Source of the DNA: a bacterium
GTDB taxonomy: Bacteria > Patescibacteriota > Doudnabacteria > UBA920
Direction of reading: 5' to 3'
DNA: 64,000 nucleotides
Assembly: GCA_016699995.1 (NCBI GenBank)
Contig: CP064996.1
Span: forward strand, 528,584 to 592,583
Position 1 is the first letter of the stretch, and each line of letters begins with the position of its first letter. Below, one piece after another: positions 9,843-46,182 of the stretch. A program made the position numbers and the translations under genes. The notes under the pieces were generated by a model. It was not told the DNA's origin, searched no databases, and saw only the letters and a list, made by a program, of their open reading frames with translations.

Positions 9843-10855
9843 ACCCTAACTATAACCTTATCCAAATCTATTCTAGGACTAAAATGAGGCATATCTGGAC
9901 CATAACCGATTCTAAAAAACATTTGAGGTCTCGTACTGATGCCTAAAGCTTGTTTAACCAATTTATAATTATCTCCTATTTCGATAGGTGCGCCCATTAT
10001 TCCAATTCTTAAACCTAAACCCTCCGCTTTTAAAGCTATTTTCTCGAAAGACATACCTGCCTTAACCCAAGCGCTTTCGTTATCTTCTACAGTACTGATA
10101 ACACCATACACTGGTGCATTCTTAAGCCACTCTTCGTGCATCTTGGCTTGAAAGTTTTGCAAGTTAAAATTTCTAATTGCAAATGGTAATAGGTAAGAAA
10201 TTAATTTTGGCACGCCGATCGTGTAGCCAGGCATACCGTCCCGATACTTAACAGAACTTGGCTTTACCCAAGCTGATAATTCGGTAGTAAACTTCTTATC
10301 TGCAAAAGCTTCTTTAACCGATTTAGAAACAATATCTCTAATGGACTGTTTCTGATTTTCTTGGCTCACAAAAGTTGAAACTATTCCCTCTAAGCACTCA
10401 GCAGCCATTTCATCCAATATGGATTGGTCTATTCGTCTGTCTTCAAGAGGCAGTCGGTTAGTTTTACGGTTTACCAGATTATCAAAAGCTTTCTGATCGA
10501 TTGAAGATGATGCTAGAGATTGATAATAAATTGTAAAAATAGTGTTCTTATCAAAATCGAAATTATACTCTGCATCATACTTCAAGCCTAAAGAATCTGA
10601 TCCGTGCAGTAAATTCTGGATCGCTGCGCCGATGCTCAGAAAAAGCTGGCGGTTATTTTCGTCGGAATAAGGTAATTTTCGATCGAAGTTTGCTTTGACA
10701 GTTATTGTTTTATCTCGAATCTCAAAAAGCCATGGTTGAGTATTATGGCTCGAGGGTGCTAAAGATGCTAATAGAACCAAAAAATCCAATCTTGCAGAAT
10801 CTGTTTGTAATTGGTCGTATTTTTCTATTTTTATTTCTGTACGAGGATTGTACAT
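9839..10855 (-). CDS. nitroreductase-family protein (tandem/extended nitroreductase fold), 338 aa
   Basis: SSHNTQPW (SxHNxQPW nitroreductase signature) near the N-terminus. Start overlaps the HK stop (ATGA-type coupling). Confidence 0.6.
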   Translation of the reverse strand: MYNPRTEIKIEKYDQLQTDSARLDFLVLLASLAPSSHNTQPWLFEIRDKTITVKANFDRKLPYSDENNRQLFLSIGAAIQNLLHGSDSLGLKYDAEYNFDFDKNTIFTIYYQSLASSSIDQKAFDNLVNRKTNRLPLEDRRIDQSILDEMAAECLEGIVSTFVSQENQKQSIRDIVSKSVKEAFADKKFTTELSAWVKPSSVKYRDGMPGYTIGVPKLISYLLPFAIRNFNLQNFQAKMHEEWLKNAPVYGVISTVEDNESAWVKAGMSFEKIALKAEGLGLRIGIMGAPIEIGDNYKLVKQALGISTRPQMFFRIGYGPDMPHFSPRIDLDKVIVRV

Positions 10856-10904: not shown

Positions 10905-11180
10905 TTAATTCTGAATTAAATCCTTTTTTAGTTTTTCAATCTCTTTGTATATCAAAGCGTCGTCAGCATAGAAAGGAACCTTTGATCTCACATATTCATA
11001 AGTTTCAGCATTGCCTTTACCAGCCTTTAATGGACTTCGCAATTCAACAGCCTGGGCAGCTGCCGCTAACTCGACTACCAAAATTTCAAATGCCATGTTT
11101 ATAATGTCTCTGCATTTTCGAGCAGCGGTCGTCGCGAAGCTTACGTAGTCTTCCTGGTTAGCAGAAGTAGGGATAGAAAC
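10905..11180 (-). pseudogene. hutH: C-terminal remnant (~90 codons) of an aromatic amino-acid (histidine/phenylalanine) ammonia-lyase; 5' part missing
   Basis: Minus-strand frame reads IPTSANQEDYVSFATTAARKCRDIINMAFEILVVELAAAAQAVELR..., matching the HAL/PAL C-terminus (SIPTSANQEDHVSMG..AARK; AIELLAAAQALD). The frame opens at a stop immediately adjacent to the res gene end at 11180. Confidence 0.6.
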
Positions 11181-13780
11181 TATTCAAGATCATCCAATTC
11201 TTCTAATAAATTTTCTAATTCACACCTAAATTTTTCTTGGCCTTTTAATATTCTCCCATCCTTCAAATACTCAAAAAATGTAGAATATCCTTCTGGACTC
11301 AAGAAATGAAAAATGTATTTTTGTTTAATTTTATTTTCCTCTAATTTATTGTTCAACCTCTCAAAATGTTCTTTCGCATATTTGTATTTTGCCTTGTTTT
11401 CATCGCTGTCGTCTTTGTCCGCTTTTATCTCAACAACAACAAAATAATCTACATTATCTTTTGTGATCTTGATAAAGAAGTCAGGATTAAACATCCCAAT
11501 CTTTTGGTGATTTGATGGTCTCCATGAATACTCAATGCCATAAAATCCACGATCCCGAGATTTTAACCACGCATCAATTTTCTCCGCAATATCCTTTTTG
11601 CAAAGGTTCTCGATGAATCTTCGTTCTGGTTCTGCGTTAGAAAAAACAACATTGACGGGGGTCTTAAACAAAAACTCATTTTGTTCCTTGTCGGCACTCT
11701 TGGGGAAACTCTCATCTTCTTTGAGCTTCTGCATTATGTTTCGTTGTTCATCGTCAAAGATCTCATTCTCCCAGTTGTTTGTGTAGAATAATGAATATCC
11801 ACGCCTAAAATTACCAACACCAGAACTTTCGCGGATGATATTTTTTGTAGAAATAACAACGGGTTCATTTACTTTTAATTGTGGCACAACTGTCTTGCTC
11901 TTTTTTCGCAGAAGTGTAGCAAAGGTATTGAGAATCTTATTGACATTTTTTTCGATGATTTGATCACCCTTAATACCAACGTTTTTCATGGATTTGAGAA
12001 TGATCTCTCGGATTTTTTCTTTCGGTGGGAGGTTATTTTGTGTGTACTGCTCTTCCCCGAGTTTCAATATTCTTCCTTCCCAATCTCTAATCTCAAATTC
12101 CTCATAGATTCTGTCCACCACTTCTTGAACAGTCCAAGTTCCGTATTCAATAACATAATTCTTCTCCCGAATATCTTTCGCAGTTATTGATTCATAAGAG
12201 GTGCCTTTTTCTGTTTGTATCACTTGAGAATCCAATTTGATACCTTCTTTTTCAATACGAGAATAATTAACAACTGGATTGGGTTTGTGTTCTACTTCCA
12301 CTTCTTCTTTGGTGTAATCAAGATTGTAAACATCAAAATGATATTTTGATCGGTCATCATTCTTAACAATCTCACTGATTATTCGAGTTTCGATTTCCAA
12401 CACTTCATCAACAAGAGCTTTTATACCTCTGCTCCATGCGTCATGGTTAAAAACAATGATTTTTGGTTGAGGAGTTGTATATGCCTCTGGTAAACGCAAA
12501 CCGCGCCCCAATACTTGTGCGATAAGAAGTTTAGAATTAAACGCCTTATCTTCCCATGGAACGATTTGAAAAACGTTTTTAACATCCCAACCTTCTGTAA
12601 GCATCGAGACAGAAACAATCCATTCAGTCGGATTTTCTCTATGATCAACTGTTTTCAATTTTGATAAATTGCCTTTATGATCCTTATGAGAAGTAACAAT
12701 CAAAACTTTTTCTTCAATACTTTCACGAGGTCGCCCCTCTCTCTTTTCAAGGAAATCAAGCAAATCTTCCATTAAACTTTTTGCCTTGGAAATATCTTTA
12801 GTGATCAAAATTGAAAGAGGTTTGATTTTTGGGTACTTATCAATATTCTCCTTGTGGTTTTGATATATTTTTTGGAACTTTTCATCAGTCCCCGAACTGT
12901 CATCTTTTTGTACATATTCAATATTCTTTACTATTCTATCTTCAATGGCTTCGCGCAAAGAATAGCGATAAATAACATCGTTAAAGTACTCGTTGTCATG
13001 ATACGCTGTACCAGTAAAACCAAGAATGTAACGAAAGTTGAAATCTAGATTTAATAAAAACTCCTTCCACCGCTTCAAACCTTGCGCTTCTGTTGTATTG
13101 CCAGATATTTTATTAAAAATATGGTGAGATTCATCATTAAGCACTAAAACGCGCTCGCCTTGTCTTTGGAAACTATCCTTAATCGATGACCCAGTTGTTT
13201 CATAAACTGCATGGATATTTTCAACACAAATACTTCCGTTTTTGACAGTGATATTTGCATCAACAATGCTTGGGTTTTTATAAAGAGCATTCGCTGGTAT
13301 CGATTTTTTGATTCGTGCATTCCCACTCAAATCCTCAAACTTCTCCAACAGTCCGTCTTCAATCGTCAAAGATGGGCAGAGTACCAAAACTTTATCTACC
13401 AAGCCTAACCCAAGCATGATTTGTGCCACACCATAAATTACATACGATTTTCCTGTACCAGTCGCTAAATCAATGTTTGCAAAAAGTTTATTAGGTAGCT
13501 GTAAATGGTGATGGTAATCGCTAAGGGTCGGATACTTTTCTTGCAGTTCGGGATTTTTATTGTAATTCTCATGTACTAAATCCTCAGTAGTAACATAACG
13601 CCCAGATGCAAGAAAGATAACCGCGTGTTTTATTGCTTCCTTTTGGTATTCTCTGTCTACACACAAGGTATCCAAAAAAGAATCCCATGCGCCCAAATCT
13701 AACTTTGTCGGATCATAGTTTTGATTCACTTTTAGAACCAAGTCTTTTTGTTTGTAAGTTTTAATATCCTGCATAGTCAT
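11180..13780 (-). CDS. res: Type III restriction endonuclease Res subunit (SF2 helicase + C-terminal PD-(D/E)xK nuclease), 866 aa
   Basis: Walker A LATGTGKSYVIYGV. DEAH-like VLNDESHHI. Helicase C motifs. C-terminal DFFIKITKDNVDYFVVVEIKADKDD nuclease-like motif. About 33% GC. Confidence 0.85.
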   Translation of the reverse strand: MTMQDIKTYKQKDLVLKVNQNYDPTKLDLGAWDSFLDTLCVDREYQKEAIKHAVIFLASGRYVTTEDLVHENYNKNPELQEKYPTLSDYHHHLQLPNKLFANIDLATGTGKSYVIYGVAQIMLGLGLVDKVLVLCPSLTIEDGLLEKFEDLSGNARIKKSIPANALYKNPSIVDANITVKNGSICVENIHAVYETTGSSIKDSFQRQGERVLVLNDESHHIFNKISGNTTEAQGLKRWKEFLLNLDFNFRYILGFTGTAYHDNEYFNDVIYRYSLREAIEDRIVKNIEYVQKDDSSGTDEKFQKIYQNHKENIDKYPKIKPLSILITKDISKAKSLMEDLLDFLEKREGRPRESIEEKVLIVTSHKDHKGNLSKLKTVDHRENPTEWIVSVSMLTEGWDVKNVFQIVPWEDKAFNSKLLIAQVLGRGLRLPEAYTTPQPKIIVFNHDAWSRGIKALVDEVLEIETRIISEIVKNDDRSKYHFDVYNLDYTKEEVEVEHKPNPVVNYSRIEKEGIKLDSQVIQTEKGTSYESITAKDIREKNYVIEYGTWTVQEVVDRIYEEFEIRDWEGRILKLGEEQYTQNNLPPKEKIREIILKSMKNVGIKGDQIIEKNVNKILNTFATLLRKKSKTVVPQLKVNEPVVISTKNIIRESSGVGNFRRGYSLFYTNNWENEIFDDEQRNIMQKLKEDESFPKSADKEQNEFLFKTPVNVVFSNAEPERRFIENLCKKDIAEKIDAWLKSRDRGFYGIEYSWRPSNHQKIGMFNPDFFIKITKDNVDYFVVVEIKADKDDSDENKAKYKYAKEHFERLNNKLEENKIKQKYIFHFLSPEGYSTFFEYLKDGRILKGQEKFRCELENLLEELDDLE

Positions 13781-13783
13781 ATT

Positions 13784-15748
13784 TTATACGGTGAAAATTT
13801 CAGCAAAGTCATTACCGTAAACATCAGTATAAATCACCATTATTTGCTTTCCCAATTCAGATTTTTTGAACGAAATTTCTAAACCCTTCTTCTCTATTTT
13901 CTTAAGTTCTGATTTTATATCCTCGTCATCGTCTTCTTTTTTATTTGCTTTCTTTGGCAAAAGTTCATCAGCAAAAAAAGCGTCATCCATTTCGAATGCT
14001 TTTCCATTGTAGCTTTTATCAACAAAGACAGCAGATAGGGTTTCGAAATTTTTCATCCCTTTCTCGTCTTGTGATTTGTCGGATTCAAGTTCTTGGCTAG
14101 TAAAACTCTTAATTAAGATTTTTACTCTATCCTTGTCTTTCTTTATTTCCGACTTTACTTCGGGATGTCGAATAAAGTGGAAACCAATCGCTTCTTCCAA
14201 ATCGTTCACATTCTTTTTACTTTGCGGTTGTCGCAATTTTAGGAATGGTGTTTTGTGGAGCTCTTTAATTACATGATATGGAATCTTGAGGAAGTAGTAT
14301 TTTACCCCGTCAATTTCATGGTAGTTAGAGAGAAAATCAACAAAGTTTGCTGGGGCAATAATATACACGCGACCACTTGCTTTCTTTCCGACAACTGCAT
14401 GTACATCTTTCAGATATTTTTCGTTAATTGTAGAGTTTTTGAAAGTTTGATAATCAAAAATCTTTACTGGGAAATCGCCTTTCATACCCTCAAATTCAAA
14501 CCCCGCAATTTTGTTTTTCTTGATTTCCACTTCAAAAAGCCCAGAGACAAACTCTTGATATTTTTGCCATTCCAAATCAAGTGCTCTTTTTAGATCATAG
14601 ATACCGAGTTGAGCAGTAACAAAACTTTTTGATTTCTTCCCGTACTTTTTATTTTGATCTTCTAAATCCTTTGAATTTTCAATTTGCAAAATGCGCTTTT
14701 GCATTGTGAAATAGGAAAGCTTACCTAGGTCACATGTAATCCATTTTCGTCCTAACTTTTCGGCTATATAAGCGGTTGCGCCAGAACCACCAAAAAAATC
14801 CATCACAATATCGCCTTCAACTGAAGCCGCTTTGATTATTCTCTCGATAAACTTATTTGGCTTCTCTGTCGGGTATCCAGTTCTTTCAACACCGTCTACT
14901 CTCAAACGAGCGGCGACTGAAAACTCCCACCAATCTTCTGGAACTTTTCCCTTTTTTCTTAATTCCTCCAAATCTTCCTCATCCCATCCTTCACCATCAT
15001 CAAAAGCAGTACGAAATGATTGATTAGGGTCTTTGTAAGGAACCCTGATCTGATCTTTGTTAAAAGTCCATTTATCCGATTTTGAGTACCAAAAAATCGT
15101 ATCGTGTTTCCTATTAAATTGCTTCATTTTAGGCGATCCTGGGCCTGTATATACCCAAATAATTTCATTCACAAGATGAAGTTCGCCGAATATCTCATCC
15201 AGTGCCAATTTTATGTAATGAGATTTTTTGTAATCGAGGTGGACAAATATACTTCCATCATCTGCCAATATTTCTTGTGCTAAAATAAGTCTACGTCGCA
15301 AAAACTCAACAAATTCTGCACCTTTCTTTTTGTCATTGTAAGCTTTTGCTCCTTCTTTGTTTAAGAAATCATCGGTAGTCGCAAAAGGTGGATCTATATA
15401 AATAAGCTTTACTTTTCCTTTCACCTTATCTTTTATCAGAGGGTCCTTATTTTCGTAAATGGTTTTAAGGAATTGCAGATTATCACCGAACACGATCATA
15501 TTTTTCCATCCATCCTTAAACGATTCGTATTCATTGCCATTGAAAACTTTTTCAGTTTGAAGAGGGACAGGGAAAACACCATCCTCATTTGCAAGCAAAT
15601 CTTCTTTTCGCATCTTCCCAGCATATACCAACTCATACTCTTTTTGAGTTGTTGGGAAAAGCAAGTATTTAAAATCGAATGGAATTTCTCTCCCGTCTTG
15701 TAGTGTTTTAACTAAAAATTCTGTATCAAATTTAGTGAGTTTTTTCAT
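13784..15748 (-). CDS. mod: Type III RM Mod subunit, N6-adenine (beta-class) DNA methyltransferase, 654 aa
   Basis: Motif IV IYIDPPFAT (DPPF/Y). Motif I VMDFFGGSGATAYIAEKLGRKWI. Immediately upstream of res, on the same strand. AT-rich. Confidence 0.85.
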   Translation of the reverse strand: MKKLTKFDTEFLVKTLQDGREIPFDFKYLLFPTTQKEYELVYAGKMRKEDLLANEDGVFPVPLQTEKVFNGNEYESFKDGWKNMIVFGDNLQFLKTIYENKDPLIKDKVKGKVKLIYIDPPFATTDDFLNKEGAKAYNDKKKGAEFVEFLRRRLILAQEILADDGSIFVHLDYKKSHYIKLALDEIFGELHLVNEIIWVYTGPGSPKMKQFNRKHDTIFWYSKSDKWTFNKDQIRVPYKDPNQSFRTAFDDGEGWDEEDLEELRKKGKVPEDWWEFSVAARLRVDGVERTGYPTEKPNKFIERIIKAASVEGDIVMDFFGGSGATAYIAEKLGRKWITCDLGKLSYFTMQKRILQIENSKDLEDQNKKYGKKSKSFVTAQLGIYDLKRALDLEWQKYQEFVSGLFEVEIKKNKIAGFEFEGMKGDFPVKIFDYQTFKNSTINEKYLKDVHAVVGKKASGRVYIIAPANFVDFLSNYHEIDGVKYYFLKIPYHVIKELHKTPFLKLRQPQSKKNVNDLEEAIGFHFIRHPEVKSEIKKDKDRVKILIKSFTSQELESDKSQDEKGMKNFETLSAVFVDKSYNGKAFEMDDAFFADELLPKKANKKEDDDEDIKSELKKIEKKGLEISFKKSELGKQIMVIYTDVYGNDFAEIFTV

Positions 15749-16279: not shown

Positions 16280-17494
16280 CTACATCCCCATCATCTTAAT
16301 CAGACCATCCCGCTTCTTAGTCTCTGCCTTACTTGGCGGCAAAAAGGCACTATCTAGGTTAAAGTCCGTTCTGCCCGACTTTACGTTTTCCCCTAAAATA
16401 ATCTTGCGCGCTAAATATGTAAGCACGCTGCCGCACAAGTTAGCGGCATTACCCAGTTGCGGCCAAGAATAAATAGTCTTCCCTACCTGCATTACCGACT
16501 CTATCATGCGCACTGTGCTCATTTCTGCACCGGCCATCTTGGCAATTACCCGAGGCAAGTCTTGCGGGTGCACTTTGCTAAATTCCTGCGCCGTCATCTT
16601 GCCTAATATACCGTGCAGAATAGGATACTTTTTGTTTTGGTCGTAACGCTCGACGTCTACGATAATGCTGTCGGCGTTATCGGCGGCCATAATTACGGGA
16701 ATACCAAGTGGACGAGCTAATTCGCGGGCGCGCATCTTAAAGTACGGCTGATCCATTTCTTCTACCAACACATCCAGCTTTGCGGTACCTTTTAAGAACT
16801 TTGGCAAATTTTCTTTGGTTAAGCCATCAGCAAACAACTCTACTTTAGCATACGGATTCATTTCGTAAATCTGCCTAGCTACTGCTACAACCTTGGGTAC
16901 TTCTATATTTACAAACCCGGTACGAATGCGGTTCATGTTAGAGGCCGAAAGCACGTCTAAATCGGCCAACTTAATGTGCCTAGCGCCGCCCGTCATGGCG
17001 ATGGTTAGCGCCACATGGCTGCCTACACTCATGCCTAAAATACCGATTACCGAGTTGTAAAACTTCTTTTGTTCGCTGGCAGTAATTAAATTGCGGTTGC
17101 GGCCGGTGCGCACCTCTTGGTGCATAGCGTCCGGTAAAAAATGAATCACAGTGTGGAGCCAAGGATAGTAAAACCAATTGCCGCTAGTCACGTACTTGTC
17201 GCCCGAGCCGTTTTTGGCGGCAAACTGCTTAAACTCGCCGTGATAGTCTTTGTCGAACCTGTACTTAGGGTTGCGCAGCAAAAACACTTCTTCCAACTGG
17301 ATGGCATACTGGTCGATAACTTTTACCGGACGACGATCTGGCTTTACTCCGTTAGGCAGTTTAAGGCGGCGAATTTGCGCTTCGAAGTTCTTCCGCGCGT
17401 CTAGCTTTACCGGCTTAAACGAACTGCGGTCGAAATTGTCTTTGATTATGATTTTTTTTGCCATAGTTTTATAAACGGCGCCGCAACAGCGCAA
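16280..17494 (-). CDS. ThiF/MoeB/E1-like adenylyltransferase-fold protein with ~130-aa N-terminal extension, 404 aa
   Basis: GILGMSVGSHVALTIAMTGGARHIKLADLDVLSASNMNRI is the classic E1 Rossmann GxGxxG plus the D.D.V..SNLNRQ-like block. Confidence 0.7.
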   Translation of the reverse strand: MRCCGAVYKTMAKKIIIKDNFDRSSFKPVKLDARKNFEAQIRRLKLPNGVKPDRRPVKVIDQYAIQLEEVFLLRNPKYRFDKDYHGEFKQFAAKNGSGDKYVTSGNWFYYPWLHTVIHFLPDAMHQEVRTGRNRNLITASEQKKFYNSVIGILGMSVGSHVALTIAMTGGARHIKLADLDVLSASNMNRIRTGFVNIEVPKVVAVARQIYEMNPYAKVELFADGLTKENLPKFLKGTAKLDVLVEEMDQPYFKMRARELARPLGIPVIMAADNADSIIVDVERYDQNKKYPILHGILGKMTAQEFSKVHPQDLPRVIAKMAGAEMSTVRMIESVMQVGKTIYSWPQLGNAANLCGSVLTYLARKIILGENVKSGRTDFNLDSAFLPPSKAETKKRDGLIKMMGM

Positions 17495-17499
17495 ATTAA

Positions 17500-19047
17500 T
17501 TATTTAATAGTCCACTTTTGCTTGCCGCCCCCTGCAAAGTGAGGCGCGCTTTGGTGTTGCCACAGCTTTACCACCGGCACCATCTTCTTGCTAAAGTTAG
17601 AGTGCAGCACGCGATACTCAGAATTCTTTTTTAACAGCACCTTTATTAACGTATCGCGCAGTGTAGCAATAAACTTCTTAGACAGCTTCGCTCCGGGCTT
17701 AAGTTCGGTATTAACCTCTAATACCGGATTATGCTTTTTGTCGTAAGTGATGCGCATGGCAAACTTGCCAGTCGTATGTTTATTTGTTGCTTTTGTTAAA
17801 TGCGCCTCGCGCACATGCTCCGGGTAAATATTGCCGCCGTACCAGCTCACCACCATATCGCTGCGCTCGTATACGTACACAAACGGCAAATTCCAAACGG
17901 TGTCTTTCAATTTTGCCGTCCTAATCTCTTTATCCAAATCAATGCCGCAGTCTTTAGCTTTGGCCATCACCTCCTTGGCGCTCATTATTCCGCCGCGGTC
18001 CTTGAGGTCATACCTAAACAAGGGCAGGCCGCTAAAAGCCGAGCAGTACAAATTTCCATTGTCGTTTTCGAAATAAAACAGCTCCGGCAAGTATTGCGTT
18101 AGTGTGGGTTGCCTTTCCAAAGCAGCGTCATTTTCGGCAATGCCAGAGAATAACTTAGCTTTAAACTTTTTATTCTTATTGCTTAGTCTGCGCACCAAAA
18201 TCGACAGCGGGGTTTCGTGAGAGTGAGTCCCCTGGTCCACAGTGCCGTAATGATTAAGCGTGGAAGTATAGATATTTTTTAGGCCAGCTTGTTTGGCCAC
18301 ATAGTCGCGAAATGCTTCGGTAAAACCTTCGGCCGAAAAAATTATTCCTAAATTATATTTCTTCCAGTTCAAGCCTTCGCTTAACCCTTGGTCGATGGTG
18401 TCTTTAACAAAGGGAGGATAGCCACCCAAAATAACCTGGTCGTATTTATCGCCTAACTGGCGCATAGCCTTAATGATCTCCTTGCTATTTACGCCTGGAG
18501 TAATAATGCTGATGTCGTAGCCTTTTTGCTGCAAAATCTGTACGGCTTCGTAAGTGAACAGGCCGCCGATCCACGCGCCCATAGCAAACCCGTCAATGTA
18601 TAAAGTGGACTTCTTGTGGATCTGAAAGTTGTTGCGCAAGTACAGCTCAGCGGTTAACGCATACTGCCGGCTCTGCTCATGCGTGCGCGGAAAATAAAAC
18701 GGTTCGCCGGTGGTGCCGGAAGTGGCGGCATAAACGCTCTGCTGTTTGCTTAACACGCCGTCCCAGCACAGCTGCTTAAGCGGATACTTGCGCAGGTAGT
18801 TGTTCTTGTCGATGGTCGGAACCAAAGCAAAATCCGCCGCGCTCTTTATCTTTGCAGGGTTCACTTTGTGCTTTTTTAAAAAGTCCTTGTACGCCGGAAC
18901 CCTCTTGGCCATTTCGTGGAACAGCTTGAGAGCGCGCTGCTCTCCCCGCTTCTGCCAGAAACTTTCCGGCTTGGTCTTTAAGTTCTTTTCTAAGGATGTA
19001 ATATTAGCGGTCTGCAATGATTTGGGAAATGAAAGCTCGTTCTTCAT
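17500..19047 (-). CDS. adenylate-forming ligase of the phenylacetate-CoA ligase (PaaK)/CapK/coenzyme F390 synthetase family, 515 aa
   Basis: P-loop-like YAATSGTTGEPFYFPRT (SGTTGxP). The size and N-terminal motif arrangement are typical of PaaK-like ANL enzymes. Confidence 0.65.
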   Translation of the reverse strand: MKNELSFPKSLQTANITSLEKNLKTKPESFWQKRGEQRALKLFHEMAKRVPAYKDFLKKHKVNPAKIKSAADFALVPTIDKNNYLRKYPLKQLCWDGVLSKQQSVYAATSGTTGEPFYFPRTHEQSRQYALTAELYLRNNFQIHKKSTLYIDGFAMGAWIGGLFTYEAVQILQQKGYDISIITPGVNSKEIIKAMRQLGDKYDQVILGGYPPFVKDTIDQGLSEGLNWKKYNLGIIFSAEGFTEAFRDYVAKQAGLKNIYTSTLNHYGTVDQGTHSHETPLSILVRRLSNKNKKFKAKLFSGIAENDAALERQPTLTQYLPELFYFENDNGNLYCSAFSGLPLFRYDLKDRGGIMSAKEVMAKAKDCGIDLDKEIRTAKLKDTVWNLPFVYVYERSDMVVSWYGGNIYPEHVREAHLTKATNKHTTGKFAMRITYDKKHNPVLEVNTELKPGAKLSKKFIATLRDTLIKVLLKKNSEYRVLHSNFSKKMVPVVKLWQHQSAPHFAGGGKQKWTIK

Positions 19048-19049
19048 AA

Positions 19050-20096
19050 CTAGCGGCCGTTAAAGATTTCTTCTGCCATTTCGTCGGCAATAATATTGGT
19101 GGCGCGGTTCATAGTCTGGCTGCGGCTAAAAATCTCTTTAAGGATCACGACAATGTTGTTTAAGCGGGTCTTAACGCGGGCGCTGTTAAACTGCTTATGC
19201 TCGTACTCATCCACTACAGAAATTAAGCCGCCCGAATTAACCACGTAATCCGGCGCATACATAATGCCCAACGAGTGCAGCAATTCGCCCACAGAACGGT
19301 CCTGCAGCTGGTTGTTGGCGCCGCCGCAAATAATCGGCGCCTTAAGCTTGGTAATAGTCTGCGAAGTCAAAGAGTTACTCAATGCGCAGGGAGAGAATAC
19401 ATCTACATCCGCTTTATAAATAGCGGTCGGCGAAACGACTTCGACCTTTGGGTACTTCTTTTTTATCTCTTTTAAACGAACGCTATCTACATCCGTAATA
19501 ACAATGCGGCCGGCTTTTTTATACAAAATATGCAGCAAGGCTTCGCCGATCTTGCCCACGCCCTGAATAGCAAACGAGCGCTTCTTTAAATCTTTGTTGC
19601 CAAAGCGGGCTTGCACGCAAAACTCAATAGCCTTAAACAAGCCTTGGGCGGTGTACAGCACCGGATTGCTGCGTACTCCGACAATGAACTCGCTATTGGC
19701 GTGCATGATCTTTAAGTCGGAATTGGTTACGCCTACATCGGCTCCAGTTACAAAGTGGCCAGCAAAATAATTAACAGCTTCGGTATAGGAAGCAATGATC
19801 TTCTCCCTATCGGCTTTATTTACACCGGCCGGTAGCAAAATTACACCCTTGCCGCCGCCGTAGTCCAAGCCGGCCATAGCGGCTTTATAAGACATCAAGC
19901 GAGATAAGCGCAAGGCGTCGCGCAAGGCGTCCTCTTTATTGGCATATCTGGCAATACGGGTCGCGCCAAAGCTAGGGCTAGTTAAGCTGCCCCGGTGCAA
20001 GGCGATATAAGCTTCTAATTTGGTTTTTTTGTCGACAGCGAAAGATACCAGCTTATGATTATCAAACTCTTCTAAAATCTCGATATTTACGCTCAT
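19050..20096 (-). CDS. Glu/Leu/Phe/Val-type amino-acid dehydrogenase (leucine/phenylalanine dehydrogenase-like), 348 aa
   Basis: Catalytic GLDYGGGKGVI motif. NAD-binding GVGKIGEALLHIL. Stop is 3 nt from the ligase start. Confidence 0.8.
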   Translation of the reverse strand: MSVNIEILEEFDNHKLVSFAVDKKTKLEAYIALHRGSLTSPSFGATRIARYANKEDALRDALRLSRLMSYKAAMAGLDYGGGKGVILLPAGVNKADREKIIASYTEAVNYFAGHFVTGADVGVTNSDLKIMHANSEFIVGVRSNPVLYTAQGLFKAIEFCVQARFGNKDLKKRSFAIQGVGKIGEALLHILYKKAGRIVITDVDSVRLKEIKKKYPKVEVVSPTAIYKADVDVFSPCALSNSLTSQTITKLKAPIICGGANNQLQDRSVGELLHSLGIMYAPDYVVNSGGLISVVDEYEHKQFNSARVKTRLNNIVVILKEIFSRSQTMNRATNIIADEMAEEIFNGR

Positions 20097-20183: not shown

Positions 20184-20642
20184 ATGGAATCTACTTCATC
20201 AGAAACAAAGAAAAAAATTGTCATTGTCGAGGATGATGTCGCGATGCGCGAAATCGTCGCTCACAAGCTGGTAACCAGTGGCTACGACGTAAAAGAAGCA
20301 GAAGATGGCCAGCAAGGAATCGACGCCATAATCGCCGATAAGCCCAATTTGGTCCTGTTGGACCTAATGCTTCCAGAAGTAGATGGCTTCAAAGTTTTAG
20401 AAACTATCCGCAAGCATTCCGATCCTGTGGTAGCCAAAACCCCGGTCATCATTCTCAGTAACCTCTGGAGCAATAAAGACATCCTCAAGACTAAGGCACT
20501 CAATGTGCAAGCTTATCTTGTGAAGGCCTACTTTACCACAGAAGAAATTCTTAAAAAAGTACAAGAGGTGATGGCTAATCCCAATAAATCGGCCGAACTT
20601 TCGGTTAGCAACCAAGCCGGCGCTCCGGCCATTAATCAGTAA
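20184..20642 (+). CDS. single-domain CheY-like response regulator receiver, 152 aa
   Basis: IVIVEDD...LVLLDLMLPEVDG...VIILS: the acidic pocket, phospho-acceptor Asp and conserved Thr/Lys positions are all present. Confidence 0.8.
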   Translation: MESTSSETKKKIVIVEDDVAMREIVAHKLVTSGYDVKEAEDGQQGIDAIIADKPNLVLLDLMLPEVDGFKVLETIRKHSDPVVAKTPVIILSNLWSNKDILKTKALNVQAYLVKAYFTTEEILKKVQEVMANPNKSAELSVSNQAGAPAINQ

Positions 20643-20701
20643 TTGCAATTTTGCGCATTACCGTCTGCAATCCGCTGATATAATTTTTTCTAAAGAACAA
20701 T

Positions 20702-20747
20702 AAAGGGTCACCCCGTCCGCGTGCCGGACAGAAAGGTGACCCTTTAA
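20702..20747. terminator. long GC-rich hairpin between the convergent response regulator and hup; bidirectional terminator
   Basis: aagggtcacc...ggtgaccctt outer stem with an inner ccgtccg/cggacag stem. Confidence 0.55.
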
Positions 20748-20754
20748 TATTGGA

Positions 20755-21027
20755 TTAAAGAATTGCGTCTTTTGCAGCCTTTGCAACTGTAAACTTCACT
20801 ACAGTCTTAGCTGGGATCTGGATGGTTTCGCCGGTTGCAGGATTGCGGCCCTGGCGAGCATCGCGATGCTTCTTCTTAAGCTTACCCAAACCTGGGATAG
20901 AAAATTCACCGCTGCTCTTGGTTTCCTTGTAAGCCAAGGCGACCATTGCTTCCATGAATTCTACTACTTCTTTTTTGGTCTTGCCGGTCTTTTCGGCAAG
21001 GTGCTGCAAGATTTCTGACTTAGTCAT
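20755..21027 (-). CDS. hup: HU/IHF-family nucleoid-associated DNA-binding protein, 90 aa
   Basis: MTKSEILQHLAEKTGKTKKEV...RQGRNPATGETIQIPAKTVVKF is the canonical HU arm motif. Confidence 0.9.
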   Translation of the reverse strand: MTKSEILQHLAEKTGKTKKEVVEFMEAMVALAYKETKSSGEFSIPGLGKLKKKHRDARQGRNPATGETIQIPAKTVVKFTVAKAAKDAIL

Positions 21028-21204: not shown

Positions 21205-21240
21205 TGGAAACAAAAATAGCGCTTATCTAAGCGCTATTTA
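21205..21240 (-). terminator. rho-independent terminator after the sortase gene
   Basis: aaatagcgcttagataagcgctattttt on the minus strand. Confidence 0.55.
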
Positions 21241-21252
21241 TAAGGTTAAAAT

Positions 21253-21885
21253 TTAGTCCTTAACTAATTCAGCCTTCACAATATATCTTTTGAGGGCCGT
21301 GCCAATCGGGTATGAAGTCTGCAGGGTCAAGATGCGCTTGCCTCTGGTGTTTTGCTCGAGCTGTTTGACGTCGTTGCTTTCTACTACGAACTTATCATAA
21401 ACTCTATAGACGTACTTCTCGCCCTCTTTGTTAGTAACGCTCACTTCGGCGCCGATTTGGATTTTAGGCAGCAACGCAAACACAGTTTTGTAATCACCCT
21501 TGCTAAAAGCAAAGTCGGACGAGTGGCCAAAGATGTAGCTATTGCCTTCGGCGCCAAACTCCGCGGTGCCGGGATAATGAACAACGCCGTTGGCTAGCGC
21601 GGCTTGAAACACCGGTTCGTTAGATTCGGTCACATACTGAATCGGTGCAACTACATCCAACGAAGGAATTTGAAGCTGGCTCGGCTCTTCTACAACTGGT
21701 CGCTCGCGGCGAATGTTCTCGCGCTGCTGTTCTGTTACAAATACCTGACTGGTGTAATAGCGAAGCTGCTTGAAGAAATATTCGTTGTTTAAGAGCGCGA
21801 AGATTGCTGCTGCCACGAGGACTGCGATCACTGCCCATTTTATAATTTTACCTAGCATAAATTGAATGTGCGCCGAAATGCGCAT
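21253..21885 (-). CDS. sortase-family transpeptidase homologue with Ser in place of the catalytic Cys (protein contains no Cys), 210 aa
   Basis: N-terminal TM anchor. His-motif IFGHSSD. The TLxTC block reads RILTLQTSYPIG (DNA acc ctg cag act tca tac). Arg follows in LKRYIV. Adjacent to an LPRTG-bearing substrate. Confidence 0.65.
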   Translation of the reverse strand: MRISAHIQFMLGKIIKWAVIAVLVAAAIFALLNNEYFFKQLRYYTSQVFVTEQQRENIRRERPVVEEPSQLQIPSLDVVAPIQYVTESNEPVFQAALANGVVHYPGTAEFGAEGNSYIFGHSSDFAFSKGDYKTVFALLPKIQIGAEVSVTNKEGEKYVYRVYDKFVVESNDVKQLEQNTRGKRILTLQTSYPIGTALKRYIVKAELVKD

Positions 21886-21894
21886 TAGTTGTTA

Positions 21895-21930
21895 AAAGAA
21901 AAAACTACCTTATTGCTAAGGTAGTTTTAT
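21895..21930 (-). terminator. rho-independent terminator after the giant surface-protein gene
   Basis: aaaactaccttagcaataaggtagttttttc on the minus strand. Confidence 0.6.
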
Positions 21931-21938
21931 TATATCAC

Positions 21939-24900
21939 TTATTTTTGTTTGCTTGCCTTAACCTCTACGGTCGCATATTTGGGCAATAACACGATGGTTA
22001 ATAATCCCAAAATAGTGAATACAATAGAAGCTGGGGTTCCGGTACGAGGCAATGTTGTAGCGCCTAATACAGAACCAGTAGGAGCGGGAGTTTCTTGGTC
22101 GCTAGGGGTATTAGTAGAATCTCCCAGGACTCGTCCTGTTGGTGGAGGTGGAGTTTGGCCACCGCCGCCTCCGCCCGAGCTTCCGCCAGAGCCGCCATTG
22201 CCGCCGTTGCCGCCGCGGCCATTGTCGAAGTTACCGAAGTTGACCCCTACAGCATCCCCTGCTGAAGTAATTAGCAAAGGTCCTGCTGCAGCATGAGCAG
22301 TTTTAATGAATAGTGAAGCAAAGAATCCTTGGCCAGAGTCGGTAAATAACTCGTTACAGTTATTAACTCCGCCCACGGCTACGTGATATGAATCAGAATC
22401 CACGTCTGGTTCTGTAACGATCCAGCCGCCCGGAGTGCTTTCTGTTACTAAATAGCAACCGGCTACTAGACCAGTAAACTGATAATTACCATTTTCGTCC
22501 GAGGTAGTACTGTCGGTAAAGGCTTCTTCTTCACCTAATTTTTCGATATTAATCTGCCAGCCTGGCAAACCAGACTCGCCTTCGTCTTTTGTGTTGTTAG
22601 CATTGGAATCTTCGTAAACTATTCCGCTAATTTTGTATCCGGAACCGCCGTTGCCGCCACCATTACAATCAAAGGTAACATCGTCCAGCTTGTAAATGAG
22701 CCCCGTTGGGTTATTAGGCTGGTCAAAAGCGTCGTTCTTTACTACAAATTTTAAGGTGTGAGTGCCAGCGGTTAACGCTAACGCGCCAGTCGTAGAAACT
22801 GTAGTAAAACCGCTGTTTGGAGCTGTACTGCCAACCAAAACATCGTCTAGATAAGCTTCTACAGAGTTGTCACCGGCGAAGCTCAATACAGGAGAATTAA
22901 TATTAATTGCCCCCGCAGGAATGGTAAAGGTATGAGAGAATAATCGGTAAGATTCTACGCCGCCGTTATAGCCGGCCGCGCCGCCAAATGTCGGCTGAGT
23001 AGAATCATTGCTTACGTAGCTGGCTCCAGCAATGGCCGAACCGCTCCAAGCTCCAGGATATCCGGTAGAATCCGCTGATTGTGCAAATCCCCAGCTTCCC
23101 AATGGATAATTGCCAATGTTAGTTGGAATTGGAGGTACAGAACCCTCACGAACACCCCAAGACAGAGTTACGCCTGCGGCGCTGGCTACAGAAATCGGCT
23201 CATCTACGCATGGGGCAATCTTTTCTATGTTGTACGCAATACAGTAAATATTCTCTGGGGTTGCTCCGTTAAGATTGATGAATTCTAGGTTGTCTCCGTT
23301 GAAGGCGTCGTCGTAACATCGCAGTGCAGCAAAATCATAACCGCCTTGAGTAACTTCGCTCACCCAGAAGTTGCCATTCTGAATGCCAGCCTGCAATTCT
23401 GCAGACAAAGCCGAGCCCGGACCATACGCAGCGGTGGTATAAGTACCATTAACGGTAGCTACGGTTTGGTTATCGTCATTTTGGTCTTGATCCGTAGACA
23501 GCAAGAACTGCCAGTTATGAGCCATGGCACAGCCATCCGGAATTTCCTCAGGATCGACGAAGCCGCCTACCAAAGGACTAGGTGAAAATGCGCCATTTGC
23601 ATAGTTATTGAAATAGACATAATTGCCGCCGGTAGCATCGTACGCGTCGCTCATTGCATTTCCTGCAACATCGCTAAAGCTGTCGCAAACTACTTTGATC
23701 AAATGCAGGTTTGGAACAACCGGTTCCGGCTGATTGCAGATTTCGTCTACTACACAAGCGTTAACTAGAGTGAAGCCAGGATTGCCGTCGAGCAATGGAT
23801 TCGGGCCTTCGACTGGACCATTCACAACTACGATATCGCCTTCCCCATCTTCATTCATCCAGCCATCCTGCATAATCTCACCCAAGCTGTATGTGCCGTA
23901 AGGAACATCATTCAAAGTTACACAGCCGTCTTCTTCTGTTACGCCAGAATAGACTTCGTAAATCTTCACAGTTAGCGGGCCGACGTTGTCGCCGAACCAT
24001 GCGGAGCTGCTATTATCAGCATCATTCTGGTTGGCAAAATCATAAACACGGAATTTAGCGGTAGAGCCGCTGCCGGTCATCAGATAGTTATAGGTATGAG
24101 ATGTATTGTAAGGGCCCCATTCTACAAAGCCGTCATCAACCTGAAGCTCAAGCAATTCATCTTGATACCCGCCCTGAGGAGCGTCTAAAACTGTGCTCCA
24201 ACCGTCCGGAGTAGTAAACTTGGCATCTACAGTTTCGAAACTGCGATTGCCCCACGTGCCACTGGCAACGGCCAAGTATTGCTTGCCGTTTTGCAATGTT
24301 GCAGAAGTAGTAGCCCCTAAAGGATTATTAGAGTTTACAGAAACAGTTTCTACTAGCTTGCCTTTTAGGAATACAGTCCAGCCAGATAATGGTTGATCAT
24401 TAGCATCGTTTACCTTACAAACAGTTACTTGAGATTCACAGCCAGTGTCACACTTGTTTACGAGGGTAAAGGTATCGCTGACACCGTCTACATTAGCGGT
24501 TTGGCCTTGGCCAGAAACGTTGGACCAGCCCTGCTGCATAACTTCGTCAACAGTGTAAGTTCCAAAAGGTACGTCTTTGAGGGTAATACAGCCGTTGTCC
24601 CCTGTTGTTCCTTTTAGCACTTTATAAATATCCACAGTTAAGCTGCCGGAGTTATCGGAATAGTTATCGTCCAAAATTCGGAAGTCCATTGCATCAGGAC
24701 CGCCAAGAGTACGGAAAGTAGAGTATTGGTGTGCCGGGTTAAAAGTAGAGCCCCAATCGGTGAACCCTTGATCAATCTGAATACCCAGCCAGCCAGTGTG
24801 AGGGTTTGGAAAATCGTTCACTCTCACCCATGGAGCAAAAGCCCCACCGTAAACAGGATCAGAAGGCAAGCGCTTAGAATACGCTGCATCAGAAGTAGAC

Positions 24901-26837
24901 GCGGCAGGATCGCCAGGGCGATATACGTAAGTACCGCTAGCTTCTACAACATATTGGCCAGCAGGCAAAGTTCCTGCGGTAGAATAGTCCGCGCCATCAG
25001 GATATACAGTCACTGTTTCAATTTTTGGACCCTTCAAATAAACTTCCCAGCCGGACAACGGATTCTGGTTGTTATCTAACTTACAAATAGTAACGTCGGA
25101 CAGACATTCCTGCTTAACGCTAACATCATCTACGAACGCTCCAAAAGAATCGCCCACCCCTTGGTCGCTGATTTCCAAACGAGTGACGCCGCTTGTAGCA
25201 GTAAATGTGTAAACATGTTCGGTCCAGACAGTATTAAGATTGCCAGTACCATCTTCTATAATTGTATCTAGGACAACTGCACCGGCCTTAACCTGGGTAA
25301 CATTCTGAGAAGAATTCTGCCCTGGACGAGGAGAAGTCCATAGTTTAACGGTATACTTGCCGCCGGGAACAGTGATTAAGTCTTGGAAAAGTTTAACAGA
25401 TCCATTTTCACCGTTAGTCGGGTCAGACGGGCCGCCCCAATCAGAATCTAGCTCAGTATGTTGAGAACCACTCTTAGGGTCCCAACCATTTACACCGCGA
25501 TGCAATTCGGCCTTTGCAATTGCAGGAGCACCGGTTGGATTAACCCAGTCTACACTCCAGCCTAGGCCAGGTGTACCAGAATCACGAACATCCCAGCTAT
25601 TAGAGAGTACAGGAGCTTCGAATCCACCATTAGCTACTAGCTCTGCACTACAAGGCTGTGGTGTTTTTAATTTATTAATAACTGTGTGAGTACATGGTTC
25701 TTGAGAATCTACGTCACAAACAACGTCAACACTTCCAACTGTTTGATCATCAACTTCCCAACCTGCTGGTAAGCCAGTTTCTGTAACGGTAATTTCTTGA
25801 CCATTATTAACGATTATTGCGTCGTGATTACAAACTAAAGTATCACCTTCATACTTACATGTAGCAGGTGCATTGCCGCCGTAGTTTACTGTAATGGTAA
25901 TATCATCTTTATTATCCGGAGCAGGAATTGGATTTCCTTGAGCATCCTGCCAAATTTTTTCAATTTCAATATCTACTGGAGTAGGTGTAGGAACAGGTTC
26001 AAAGTCATAGGTTGTAATCAATGAAGCAGTAGAAACCACCACTTTATCCAAATAACCATCTAATCCAGCGTCAGAAGCGGAAGTATCGCCAACATTCAAA
26101 GCAAACATGCGGATATTTGATCCTGAGCTAAAATTATTCATATCTGCCGGCACAGAAGGGCAAGTGTGAGGCGAAGGGTCTCCACCAGCTCTAGTTGTAA
26201 CTGGATAAGACTGTGTGGGATCAAATGTTACAGTTGTAAAACTACCTGTAGAACCAAAAGTTGGTACAACATTATATCTACAATCATAAAACTTGGTTGG
26301 GCTAGACGAACCAAAGTTTGCATAAACGTTCATGTAGAATTGCTCTTCATCAGTATTGTCACCGCCGCTGCCAATTTTAAAGTCATAGCTAATGCTATTT
26401 ATATCTACTATTAACTTGTTAATAAAATTTTCAGCGACCATCTTGTCTGCTGGTGTAGCTCCAATAGGTAAGACATTTAAGCTCCCCGACCCAATACTTG
26501 CCGCGTTTGTATTAAATGCAAAAGGAGTATCTGTGGAAGTATCACGGTTAAACATCCAGCCAGGTTGGTTTTCTCCAGCAGCTGTGTCGCCAGTAATAAT
26601 TATAGTATTACTTGGAATTGCTGGTGTATCTAAACTCTCACAACCACCCTGAGGCACAGGGTATACATCACCATGATTAATATGGGTCTGCAATGAATTT
26701 GAGTTTACACTTAAGCTATTGTATCCATTGCCAGTTTTGTGGCAAACATCAACAAAAGTTGTTGCCGCATAAGTGGTGGAGAGAGGTGCAAGCACTGTGC
26801 TTACCAAAGCAAAGCGCGATACGCCTTGATATGCCAA
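21939..26837 (-). CDS. giant (1632 aa) secreted cell-surface protein with LPXTG-type (LPRTG) C-terminal sorting signal, repeated SpaA/SdrD-B/prealbumin-like Ig domains, DUF642-like jelly-roll region and Gly-rich linker
   Basis: Signal peptide MAYQGVSRFALVSTVLAPLSTTYAA. Internal repeats (NPLSGWEVYLKG / QPLSGWTVFLKG; GTYTVDEVMQQGW / GTYSLGEIMQDGW). SdrD-B-like block SGIVYEDSNANNTKDEGESGLPGW...NGNYQFTGL. C-terminal LPRTG, then a hydrophobic stretch, then a KYATVEVKASKQK basic tail. Confidence 0.85.
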   Translation of the reverse strand: MAYQGVSRFALVSTVLAPLSTTYAATTFVDVCHKTGNGYNSLSVNSNSLQTHINHGDVYPVPQGGCESLDTPAIPSNTIIITGDTAAGENQPGWMFNRDTSTDTPFAFNTNAASIGSGSLNVLPIGATPADKMVAENFINKLIVDINSISYDFKIGSGGDNTDEEQFYMNVYANFGSSSPTKFYDCRYNVVPTFGSTGSFTTVTFDPTQSYPVTTRAGGDPSPHTCPSVPADMNNFSSGSNIRMFALNVGDTSASDAGLDGYLDKVVVSTASLITTYDFEPVPTPTPVDIEIEKIWQDAQGNPIPAPDNKDDITITVNYGGNAPATCKYEGDTLVCNHDAIIVNNGQEITVTETGLPAGWEVDDQTVGSVDVVCDVDSQEPCTHTVINKLKTPQPCSAELVANGGFEAPVLSNSWDVRDSGTPGLGWSVDWVNPTGAPAIAKAELHRGVNGWDPKSGSQHTELDSDWGGPSDPTNGENGSVKLFQDLITVPGGKYTVKLWTSPRPGQNSSQNVTQVKAGAVVLDTIIEDGTGNLNTVWTEHVYTFTATSGVTRLEISDQGVGDSFGAFVDDVSVKQECLSDVTICKLDNNQNPLSGWEVYLKGPKIETVTVYPDGADYSTAGTLPAGQYVVEASGTYVYRPGDPAASTSDAAYSKRLPSDPVYGGAFAPWVRVNDFPNPHTGWLGIQIDQGFTDWGSTFNPAHQYSTFRTLGGPDAMDFRILDDNYSDNSGSLTVDIYKVLKGTTGDNGCITLKDVPFGTYTVDEVMQQGWSNVSGQGQTANVDGVSDTFTLVNKCDTGCESQVTVCKVNDANDQPLSGWTVFLKGKLVETVSVNSNNPLGATTSATLQNGKQYLAVASGTWGNRSFETVDAKFTTPDGWSTVLDAPQGGYQDELLELQVDDGFVEWGPYNTSHTYNYLMTGSGSTAKFRVYDFANQNDADNSSSAWFGDNVGPLTVKIYEVYSGVTEEDGCVTLNDVPYGTYSLGEIMQDGWMNEDGEGDIVVVNGPVEGPNPLLDGNPGFTLVNACVVDEICNQPEPVVPNLHLIKVVCDSFSDVAGNAMSDAYDATGGNYVYFNNYANGAFSPSPLVGGFVDPEEIPDGCAMAHNWQFLLSTDQDQNDDNQTVATVNGTYTTAAYGPGSALSAELQAGIQNGNFWVSEVTQGGYDFAALRCYDDAFNGDNLEFINLNGATPENIYCIAYNIEKIAPCVDEPISVASAAGVTLSWGVREGSVPPIPTNIGNYPLGSWGFAQSADSTGYPGAWSGSAIAGASYVSNDSTQPTFGGAAGYNGGVESYRLFSHTFTIPAGAININSPVLSFAGDNSVEAYLDDVLVGSTAPNSGFTTVSTTGALALTAGTHTLKFVVKNDAFDQPNNPTGLIYKLDDVTFDCNGGGNGGSGYKISGIVYEDSNANNTKDEGESGLPGWQINIEKLGEEEAFTDSTTSDENGNYQFTGLVAGCYLVTESTPGGWIVTEPDVDSDSYHVAVGGVNNCNELFTDSGQGFFASLFIKTAHAAAGPLLITSAGDAVGVNFGNFDNGRGGNGGNGGSGGSSGGGGGGQTPPPPTGRVLGDSTNTPSDQETPAPTGSVLGATTLPRTGTPASIVFTILGLLTIVLLPKYATVEVKASKQK

Positions 26838-46175: not shown

Positions 46176-46182
46176 AAATATT

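Follow-up and report, generated by a model that had tools for sequence, protein, structure and literature searches.

The definition of a sortase, its classification (MEROPS C60) and the inhibitors directed against it all presuppose a cysteine transpeptidase, and a sortase homologue that contains no cysteine raises the question of whether it can be an enzyme at all. Such a gene lies on the minus strand, at positions 21253..21885, of a 64,000-nucleotide stretch of contig CP064996.1 (assembly GCA_016699995.1, positions 528,584 to 592,583; hereafter the window) from a member of the Doudnabacteria (Patescibacteriota; UBA920). An earlier sequence-only reading of this DNA had offered two explanations for the serine that stands in the place of the catalytic cysteine, namely an inactive pseudo-sortase or a serine-nucleophile variant of the sortase fold. 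The analysis reported here favours the second explanation, without proving it: we put the probability at about 0.55 that the gene encodes an active transpeptidase with a serine nucleophile, dedicated to the cargo protein that is encoded beside it.

A sortase fold with serine in place of cysteine

Fold, topology, histidine and arginine residues and type of substrate all place the encoded protein in the sortase superfamily. The Pfam family PF04203 (Sortase) matches residues 71-208 over the complete profile (1-125/125) with E=3.8e-24 and 85.3 bits against a cut-off of 26.6, and TIGR01076 is also passed (42.6 against 39.35). The NCBIfam class models all failed, with scores of 49.6 against 165 for class D, 42.7 against 160 for class C and 39.4 against 160 for class E, as did those for class F (32.8 against 166), GN (33.6 against 158) and SrtD-LPxTATN (52.8 against 140). 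An AlphaFold2 model based on 32 homologues (mean predicted local distance difference test score, pLDDT, 91.6; predicted template modelling score, pTM, 0.81) consists of an N-terminal helix (residues 5-32) followed by a beta-barrel. When this model was compared with the PDB by Foldseek, the top 50 matches were all sortases (E down to 5e-12), and it superposes on SrtA and SrtC structures over approximately 143 residues with a root-mean-square deviation of 2.4-3 A. The eight-stranded barrel fold, the N-terminal anchor, the His and Arg residues and an LPxTG-type substrate are all found; the cysteine of TLxTC is not, and with it the nucleophile that chemically defines sortases is missing.

The identification of the gene rests on its open reading frame (ORF), the Pfam match, the structural model, the Foldseek comparison and an identical NCBI entry. 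Counted from the first ATG, as all residue numbers are here, the protein has 210 amino acids (aa). The GenBank entry for the same gene (QQS22569.1, annotated as "sortase", on a 943,189-bp contig) begins at Met10 (21858), the start position used by most homologues, and it is likely that this is the true start and that the protein has 201 aa. A membrane anchor, IIKWAVIAVLVAAAIFALL (residues 14-32, 21790..21846 on the minus strand), lies inside the modelled helix and is followed directly by a juxtamembrane motif, LNxxYFxKQ (residues 33-40), which is near-invariant in the serine-type clade (Asn33 and Tyr36 in at least 90%) and could be a lid-like or membrane-proximal element. The catalytic beta-barrel domain occupies residues 70-208 (21262..21678, minus strand; Pfam match 71-208, AlphaFold2 strands from 70-73 to 197-207), so that the soluble domain comprises about 140 residues.

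All three elements of the active site could be placed within this barrel. The His block FGHSSD (residues 119-124) is encoded at 21514..21531, with His121 at 21523-21525 and Asp124 at 21514-21516; the nucleophile block LTLQTSYP (residues 186-193, including Gln189, Thr190, Ser191 and Tyr192) at 21307..21330; and Arg200, within LKRYIV (198-203), at 21286..21288, all on the minus strand. In alignments to four solved sortases (4d70, 8t28, 7s53 and 7f87; phmmer), Ser191, His121 and Arg200 correspond in every case to the nucleophilic Cys within T[IL]VTC, the catalytic His and the conserved Arg (Arg197 in SrtA), respectively. The modelled strands 184-194 and 197-207 form a tight hairpin, which would place Arg200 directly cross-strand from Ser191, as in canonical sortases. 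The anchor, the His motif and the Arg had been named in the sequence-only reading and were recovered at the same places by translation, structural model and PDB alignments. Its assignment of a serine to the catalytic-cysteine position was likewise upheld: the Pfam match, the four PDB alignments and the profile-profile comparison (hhalign, QTS opposite MTC) concur on Ser191 and point to no other catalytic position. Also borne out was the claim that the protein is free of cysteine, as the translation contains none. The Ser191 codon (TCA at 21313-21315, in the context ACT TCA TAC) is two substitutions away from TGT or TGC.

The serine is not peculiar to this genome, and its recurrence goes well beyond what chance would give. 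The best 120 matches of each similarity search were taken in, and in the best 120 relatives, which share 100-47% identity with the query, Ser occupies the nucleophile position in 120 of 120, so that the close homologues do not carry the cysteine that would have pointed to an error in this copy. Most of them are entirely cysteine-free, and they share the motif LQTSYP[IVL]GT[AS]L[KRQ]R[YWF]. A HMMER search against 1.84 billion cluster representatives returned 4014 matches, of which 101 have E<1e-30. The first hundred or so are nearly all serine-type, the exceptions being a few truncated sequences and P0213 (E 2.6e-32); apart from P0213, cysteine-bearing relatives start at about E 1e-28 and weaker. 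When all retrieved proteins were pooled, 233 had Ser and 146 had Cys at the nucleophile position, and alignment with known and Patescibacteria sortases showed the serine to be conserved throughout its clade. No third residue, Ala, Gly and Thr included, was found at this position among the pooled proteins, a single regular-expression match to one being spurious.

The remaining active-site residues are equally constant. His and Arg are each present in 143 of 143 aligned domains, and Thr190 is near-invariant. The marks of a pseudo-enzyme, a relaxed nucleophile position or the loss of other catalytic residues, are therefore absent from a family in which 233 of 233 serine-type proteins keep the serine and in which His and Arg do not vary. 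Ser122 and Ser123 of the His block are invariant as well; given that they are conserved to the same degree in the cysteine-type relatives, they are not the replacement nucleophile. All six serine codons are in use at position 191 among 82 genes (TCT 29, TCG 20, TCC 16, TCA 14, AGC 2 and AGT 1), a spread that reads as synonymous drift with purifying selection on the amino acid. Recoding by an alternative genetic code was considered separately and rejected, as the serine codons are ordinary TCN/AGY codons and long ORFs are clean under table 11.

Some representatives in the pool are unusually long and carry the sortase domain at the C-terminus, such as P0130 (517 aa), P0138 (919 aa), P0150 (673 aa), P0236 and P0266. 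These may be cargo-sortase fusions, read-through or frameshift calls, or true multidomain proteins.

Cysteine-type relatives, cargo and gene neighbourhood

The nearest cysteine-type relatives are also Patescibacteria sortases (phmmer E approximately 1e-32 to 1e-25), among which Gracilibacteria, Peregrinibacteria and Berkelbacteria are named. They share with the serine type the GHSS His block, the W/YxxGxYKxVFALL loop, the xPxGT...R hairpin and the N-terminal anchor, and differ in having MTC[TWV]P with Cys and in being labelled class D/E sortases by NCBI. Profile-profile comparison of the two groups by hhalign gave a probability of 100% at 37% identity, with LTLQTSYPiGT opposite LTLMTC-PvGT. 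Three further positions separate them: two residues before the nucleophile the serine type has Gln in 99%, whereas the cysteine type has Met in 92%; three residues after the His the serine type has Asp in 96%, whereas the cysteine type has Tyr or Asn in 87% and Asp in 10%; and the residue directly after the nucleophile is Tyr, Trp or Phe in 100% of serine-type proteins and Thr, Trp or Val in the cysteine type. Some cysteine-type proteins, such as P0257 (ITCYP together with GHSSD), already have Asp three residues after the His, and these look like evolutionary intermediates.

A neighbour-joining tree rooted on SrtA, SrtC and SrtD sequences, with 60 bootstraps, places the GHSS family in one group with the cysteine types basal and 44 of 45 sampled serine types in a single derived clade. 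There are two exceptions, the cysteine-type P0257, which is nested in the serine clade, and one serine protein that falls outside it. Bootstrap trees imply 1-8 changes between the Cys and Ser states, mostly 2-4, a resolution too limited to call the Ser state strictly monophyletic; a midpoint-rooted tree was poorly resolved. Serine is nevertheless the derived state, because all of the outgroups have Cys.

The serine-type gene is closely associated with a potential substrate. The 1632-aa LPRTG protein that the sequence-only reading had noted beside the sortase is encoded in the window at 21939..26837 on the minus strand, 53 bp upstream of the sortase gene; it is a secreted surface protein, the N-terminus of which resembles a signal segment. 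Residues 1403-1483 (22389-22631) form a SpaA/SdrD-B prealbumin-like domain (Pfam SpaA 7.9e-17, SdrD_B 1.4e-14), and the C-terminal region (21942..22073, minus strand) carries the sorting signal SVLGATT-LPRTG, with LPRTG at 22038-22052, followed by a hydrophobic helix, TPASIVFTILGLLTIVLLP, and a K-rich basic tail, KYATVEVKASKQK. Peptides from this sorting-signal region are VLGATTLPRTGTP and PTGSVLGATTLPRTGTPAS. A VLG-containing segment occurs twice in this cargo, once in GRVLGDST... and once in GSVLGATTLPRTG. No second sortase and no second LPxTG protein was found in the 64-kb window when all six-frame ORFs and the family hidden Markov model were considered.

This arrangement recurs across the serine type. 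Adjacency was defined as an LPxTG-protein gene on the same strand that ends at most 1 kb upstream, and was scored where 600 nt or more of upstream sequence was available; it was found for 59 of 76 serine-type loci against 1 of 55 cysteine-type loci. The single cysteine-type locus that scored appears to be L142, itself of the serine type, and several more serine-type loci have a cargo that the stricter filter missed. The motif in the 59 adjacent cargos is LPRTG in 52 and LPVTG in 4, with LPKTG, LPGTG and LPATA once each. Homologous cargo lies upstream of the serine-type gene in 60 loci, and the consensus of 61 adjacent cargos gives an extended signal, P-[QE]-V-L-G-A-x-T-[ET]-L-P-R-T-G, which is present in most of them. 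At locus L047 two serine-type genes stand in tandem (9947-10597 and 11021-11965), and a separate LPRTG protein, of 454 aa and 112 aa respectively, is encoded ahead of each.

A different placement is seen in the complete Kazan genome CP011216.1, in which the serine-type gene (L021, 9989-10597) interrupts a peptidoglycan-synthesis cluster in the order murD-ftsW-murG-[serine-type sortase]-murC-ftsQ, with the domains confirmed by Pfam. The same order is found at L057, L070, L071 and L079, and all five genes placed between murG and murC are without an adjacent cargo. No cysteine sortase was found within 10 kb on either side of the serine-type gene in 80 loci, the only other sortase being the tandem copy at L047. 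Similarly, no serine-type gene lies near the cysteine-type genes of 82 metagenome loci, with the exception of L142. An rplJ-rplL neighbourhood, as around the cysteine-type P0213, was seen in 7 of the 82 cysteine-type loci, too few to serve as an anchor for these genes.

When one genome was scanned for each species, a relative turned up in as many as 167 genomes, and the 80 best matches among these all have the serine type. With a few exceptions, the titles of these 80 records name Doudnabacteria, Kazan, the Patescibacteria group or "uncultured Candidatus Saccharibacteria", the last being automatically named metagenome-assembled genomes (MAGs), many of which share contigs with Doudnabacteria-like rpoA genes. 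The RpoA encoded in the window is 82% and 78% identical to proteins named Candidatus Doudnabacteria, which marks its source as a Doudnabacteria-like Patescibacterium. Of 43 rpoA-bearing contigs of at least 20 kb among the matches listed for this lineage, 21 agree exactly in length with a contig that carries a serine-type sortase and none with a listed cysteine-type contig, and the listed serine-type and cysteine-type contigs have no length in common; this is weak evidence, as each list ends at the best 120 matches. The gene appears to be common in the Doudnabacteria-like lineage. Six MAG records under other titles also carry the serine-type sortase with an LPRTG cargo: L028, L051, L059 and L066 (Gammaproteobacteria), L042 (Binatia) and L069 (Acidobacteriaceae). 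These titles likely reflect mislabelled or contaminated bins.

Closer to the gene itself, a terminator-like hairpin with a 12-bp stem and a T-run (21901..21928, minus strand; consensus scan and sequence) lies between the cargo and sortase genes. It may act as an attenuator of read-through, by which the enzyme would be made in a smaller amount than its cargo. A second hairpin of this kind, with an 11-bp stem and a T-run, was found in the same way directly past the sortase stop codon (21214..21239, minus strand). Downstream, at 20184-21027, the sortase gene is followed by an HU gene in the same orientation and, on the opposite strand, by a gene for a stand-alone response regulator; HU follows the serine-type gene on the same strand in 22 related loci, and the response regulator is found on the opposite strand in 16.

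Elsewhere in the window, three alanyl-tRNA-synthetase-like ORFs occur within 64 kb of a genome smaller than 1 Mb. The first (42845-44626, minus strand) encodes 593 aa with catalytic and SAD domains, the second (4611-5903, minus strand) 430 aa limited to the catalytic core (E=2e-103), and the third (2468-3313, plus strand) 281 aa with a partial tRNA-synt_2c domain; they could represent a split or duplicated AlaRS or AlaX-like paralogues. A Type III-like restriction-modification pair at 11180-15748 (minus strand) consists of an 866-aa ResIII/SWI2-SNF2 helicase-nuclease and a 654-aa N6/N4 DNA methylase. A co-directional trio at 16280-20096 (minus strand) encodes a ThiF-family protein (404 aa), a 515-aa protein without a Pfam match, in which an SGTTGEP adenylate-forming-like motif is visible by eye, and a Leu/Phe/Val-dehydrogenase-like protein (348 aa). 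A nitroreductase-like gene (9839-10855) lies near this trio, and the region may be a small-molecule or peptide modification cluster. Genes related to the cell surface are found at 44910-48844, 57068-58513 and 60916-62817 (minus strand) and include an S41 C-terminal processing peptidase with a PDZ domain, a Wzy_C O-antigen-ligase-like protein, a GT1/GT4 glycosyltransferase, a polysaccharide flippase and an S8 subtilase. Scanning of the window against Rfam and for tRNA genes gave no matches.

A candidate serine mechanism and its rivals

From these observations a mechanism can be proposed in which Ser191 acts as the nucleophile, Asp124 and Gln189 as its helpers and lipid II as the acceptor, roles that we infer. 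The ancestral Cys would have been replaced by Ser jointly with a change of Met to Gln two positions before it, of Tyr or Asn to Asp three positions after the His, and with the fixation of an aromatic residue after the Ser. After export, the 1632-aa cargo would stay in the membrane through its C-terminal helix and basic tail, and there the sortase would bind the extended signal P[QE]VLGAxT[ET]-LPRTG. Ser191, activated by His121, which Asp124 possibly orients, would then attack the bond between Thr and Gly while Arg200 stabilises the substrate or the transition state, and the resulting acyl-enzyme would be an ester in place of the usual thioester. An amine of a peptidoglycan precursor would finally resolve this intermediate and leave the cargo linked to the wall, in a manner comparable to that of the serine-dependent D,D-transpeptidases. 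Such a step has chemical precedent in the serine-dependent penicillin-binding proteins, the ester acyl-enzymes of which are aminolysed efficiently by peptidoglycan amines.

Several lines of evidence favour an active enzyme. The serine has not given way to Ala, Gly or Thr in any of the serine-type proteins, neither His nor Arg varies, the gene is coupled to a cargo, and in some genomes it is placed between murG and murC. Polar residues have also been newly fixed beside the catalytic His (Asp124) and on the strand face of the nucleophile (Gln189), which would be the kind of help required by a hydroxyl nucleophile but not by a thiolate.

Three considerations weigh on the other side. The C184S mutant of Staphylococcus aureus SrtA, in which the same replacement was engineered, has been used as an inactive or cysteine-less variant, and its activity is described as "decreased dramatically" (PMC4827206, PMC5578623). 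Given that this mutant is nearly inactive, an active serine sortase would need compensating changes, a role that Asp124 and Gln189 are presumed to fill. The His, Arg and Ser could in principle have been retained for binding of the sorting signal instead of catalysis, and a cysteine sortase may exist elsewhere in the genome, beyond the 64-kb window or the 10-kb neighbourhoods.

These considerations lead to the main alternative, one that we regard as unlikely, though it carries real weight, in which the protein is a conserved pseudo-sortase. Its groove, lined by Arg200, His121 and the serine hydroxyl, would bind the LPRTG signal of the cargo without catalysis, and the protein would serve as a receptor, chaperone or retention factor that either passes the cargo to a cysteine sortase encoded elsewhere or keeps it anchored in the membrane. 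The abolished or strongly lowered activity of SrtA upon replacement of Cys by Ser fits this explanation, as does the location beside a single cargo, which is typical of accessory factors. A dedicated accessory protein in a sortase system also has a precedent in SipA of Streptococcus pyogenes, a signal-peptidase-like protein that is reported to be required for sortase-dependent pilus assembly (PMC4049620). The cysteine-type GHSS sortases, moreover, lie away from cargo genes in a housekeeping-like manner, and a division of labour between the two types in one genome is conceivable. If loss of the cysteine alone were what mattered, however, Ala, Gly or Thr would be expected at the position in at least some proteins, and none of the 233 has them. 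The complete retention of His and Arg, and the fixation of the polar Asp124 and Gln189 next to the catalytic His and Ser, likewise argue for catalysis. No cysteine sortase was found in the 10-kb neighbourhoods of the 80 loci examined, and no overlap was seen between the listed cysteine-type contigs and the contigs of this lineage. The placement between murG and murC in five genomes also looks like that of a housekeeping enzyme rather than of an accessory factor.

The evidence from conservation applies identically to an active serine hydrolase, which would cut LPRT|G and release the cargo from the membrane, in shedding or in the maturation of an S-layer or of filaments, with no linkage to the wall. 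Because an amine resolves an ester acyl-enzyme less readily than a thioester, water could compete for the intermediate, and a cargo that is very large and adhesin-like would suit such a role. We nevertheless consider this outcome improbable, in view of the location of the gene in the peptidoglycan-synthesis cluster of Kazan and four other genomes, the retention of a classical tripartite wall-sorting signal by the cargo, and the efficiency with which penicillin-binding proteins aminolyse their ester intermediates. As for an artefact, be it an error in sequencing or assembly, a pseudogene in decay or an active site misaligned so that the true nucleophile lies elsewhere, nothing speaks for it except the a priori oddity of a sortase without cysteine. 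The identical protein was deposited independently (QQS22569.1), the serine is present in 233 of 233 serine-type proteins from many studies with synonymous codon variation, the ORF is intact and the model confident, cysteine-free relatives are the majority, and all alignment methods give the same register; we give this explanation almost no credence.

The active serine-nucleophile transpeptidase thus remains our preferred reading, and a more far-reaching version of it can be formulated, for which we see the chances as evenly balanced. It holds jointly that Ser191 is the true nucleophile, working with His121, Asp124, Gln189 and Arg200 through an ester acyl-enzyme; that this would be the first natural sortase-fold transpeptidase to run on serine; that it would be the principal, perhaps the sole, enzyme for anchoring of surface proteins in Doudnabacteria, Kazan and their relatives; and that its specificity would be for VLGAxT[ET]-LPRTG.

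Comparison with known systems

A description of a serine-type sortase was not found in the searchable full-text literature, the coverage of which excludes subscription-only papers, and the word "serine" does not occur in a 2024 structural review of sortases. With the classical sortases (MEROPS C60/PF04203, classes A-F) the present protein shares the eight-stranded barrel, the anchor, the His at the end of beta4, the Thr-X at the end of beta7 and the Arg on beta8, as well as an LPxTG-type cargo with helix and basic tail and, as in classes B, C and D, an enzyme gene beside that of its cargo. Its best NCBIfam similarity is to the class D, C and E models. It differs from the classical sortases, beyond its serine and its lack of any cysteine, in its GHSSD block, a longer loop after beta4, a two-residue turn between beta7 and beta8 and an extended recognition signal. 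The SrtA C184S mutant carries the same single-atom change from sulfur to oxygen, but without the co-evolved Gln two positions before the nucleophile and the Asp after the His. If the proposed activity is real, a large clade would show a transpeptidase fold changing its nucleophile and would provide a natural counter-example to this inactive mutant.

SipA, which reportedly lacks catalytic residues, has a signal-peptidase fold that is unrelated to the sortase barrel and serves here as the model for the pseudo-enzyme alternative. Rhombosortase, which acts in the GlyGly-CTERM system, is reported to be a serine enzyme dedicated to a C-terminal sorting signal and has a rhomboid intramembrane protease fold, likewise unrelated to the sortase barrel (PMC3237569).

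Neither oxidation nor thiol-reactive sortase inhibitors would affect an active serine-type sortase, which would be a possible orthogonal tool for LPRTG protein ligation. It would also offer a clue to how ultra-small episymbiotic Patescibacteria attach very large adhesin-like proteins, which are probably mediators of host contact.

The closest functional analogy is with the serine-dependent D,D-transpeptidases (penicillin-binding proteins) and the cysteine-dependent L,D-transpeptidases (YkuD), the folds of which are unrelated. In these enzymes, transpeptidation to a peptidoglycan amine proceeds through an acyl-enzyme with either nucleophile, and an ester-based sortase reaction is therefore chemically plausible. 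We know of no single fold among these transpeptidases that uses both nucleophiles. The chymotrypsin fold does use both, with Ser in trypsin-like enzymes and Cys in viral 3C proteases, and if the reading preferred here is correct, the sortase fold would likewise be a mixed-nucleophile family, as the chymotrypsin fold is among proteases.

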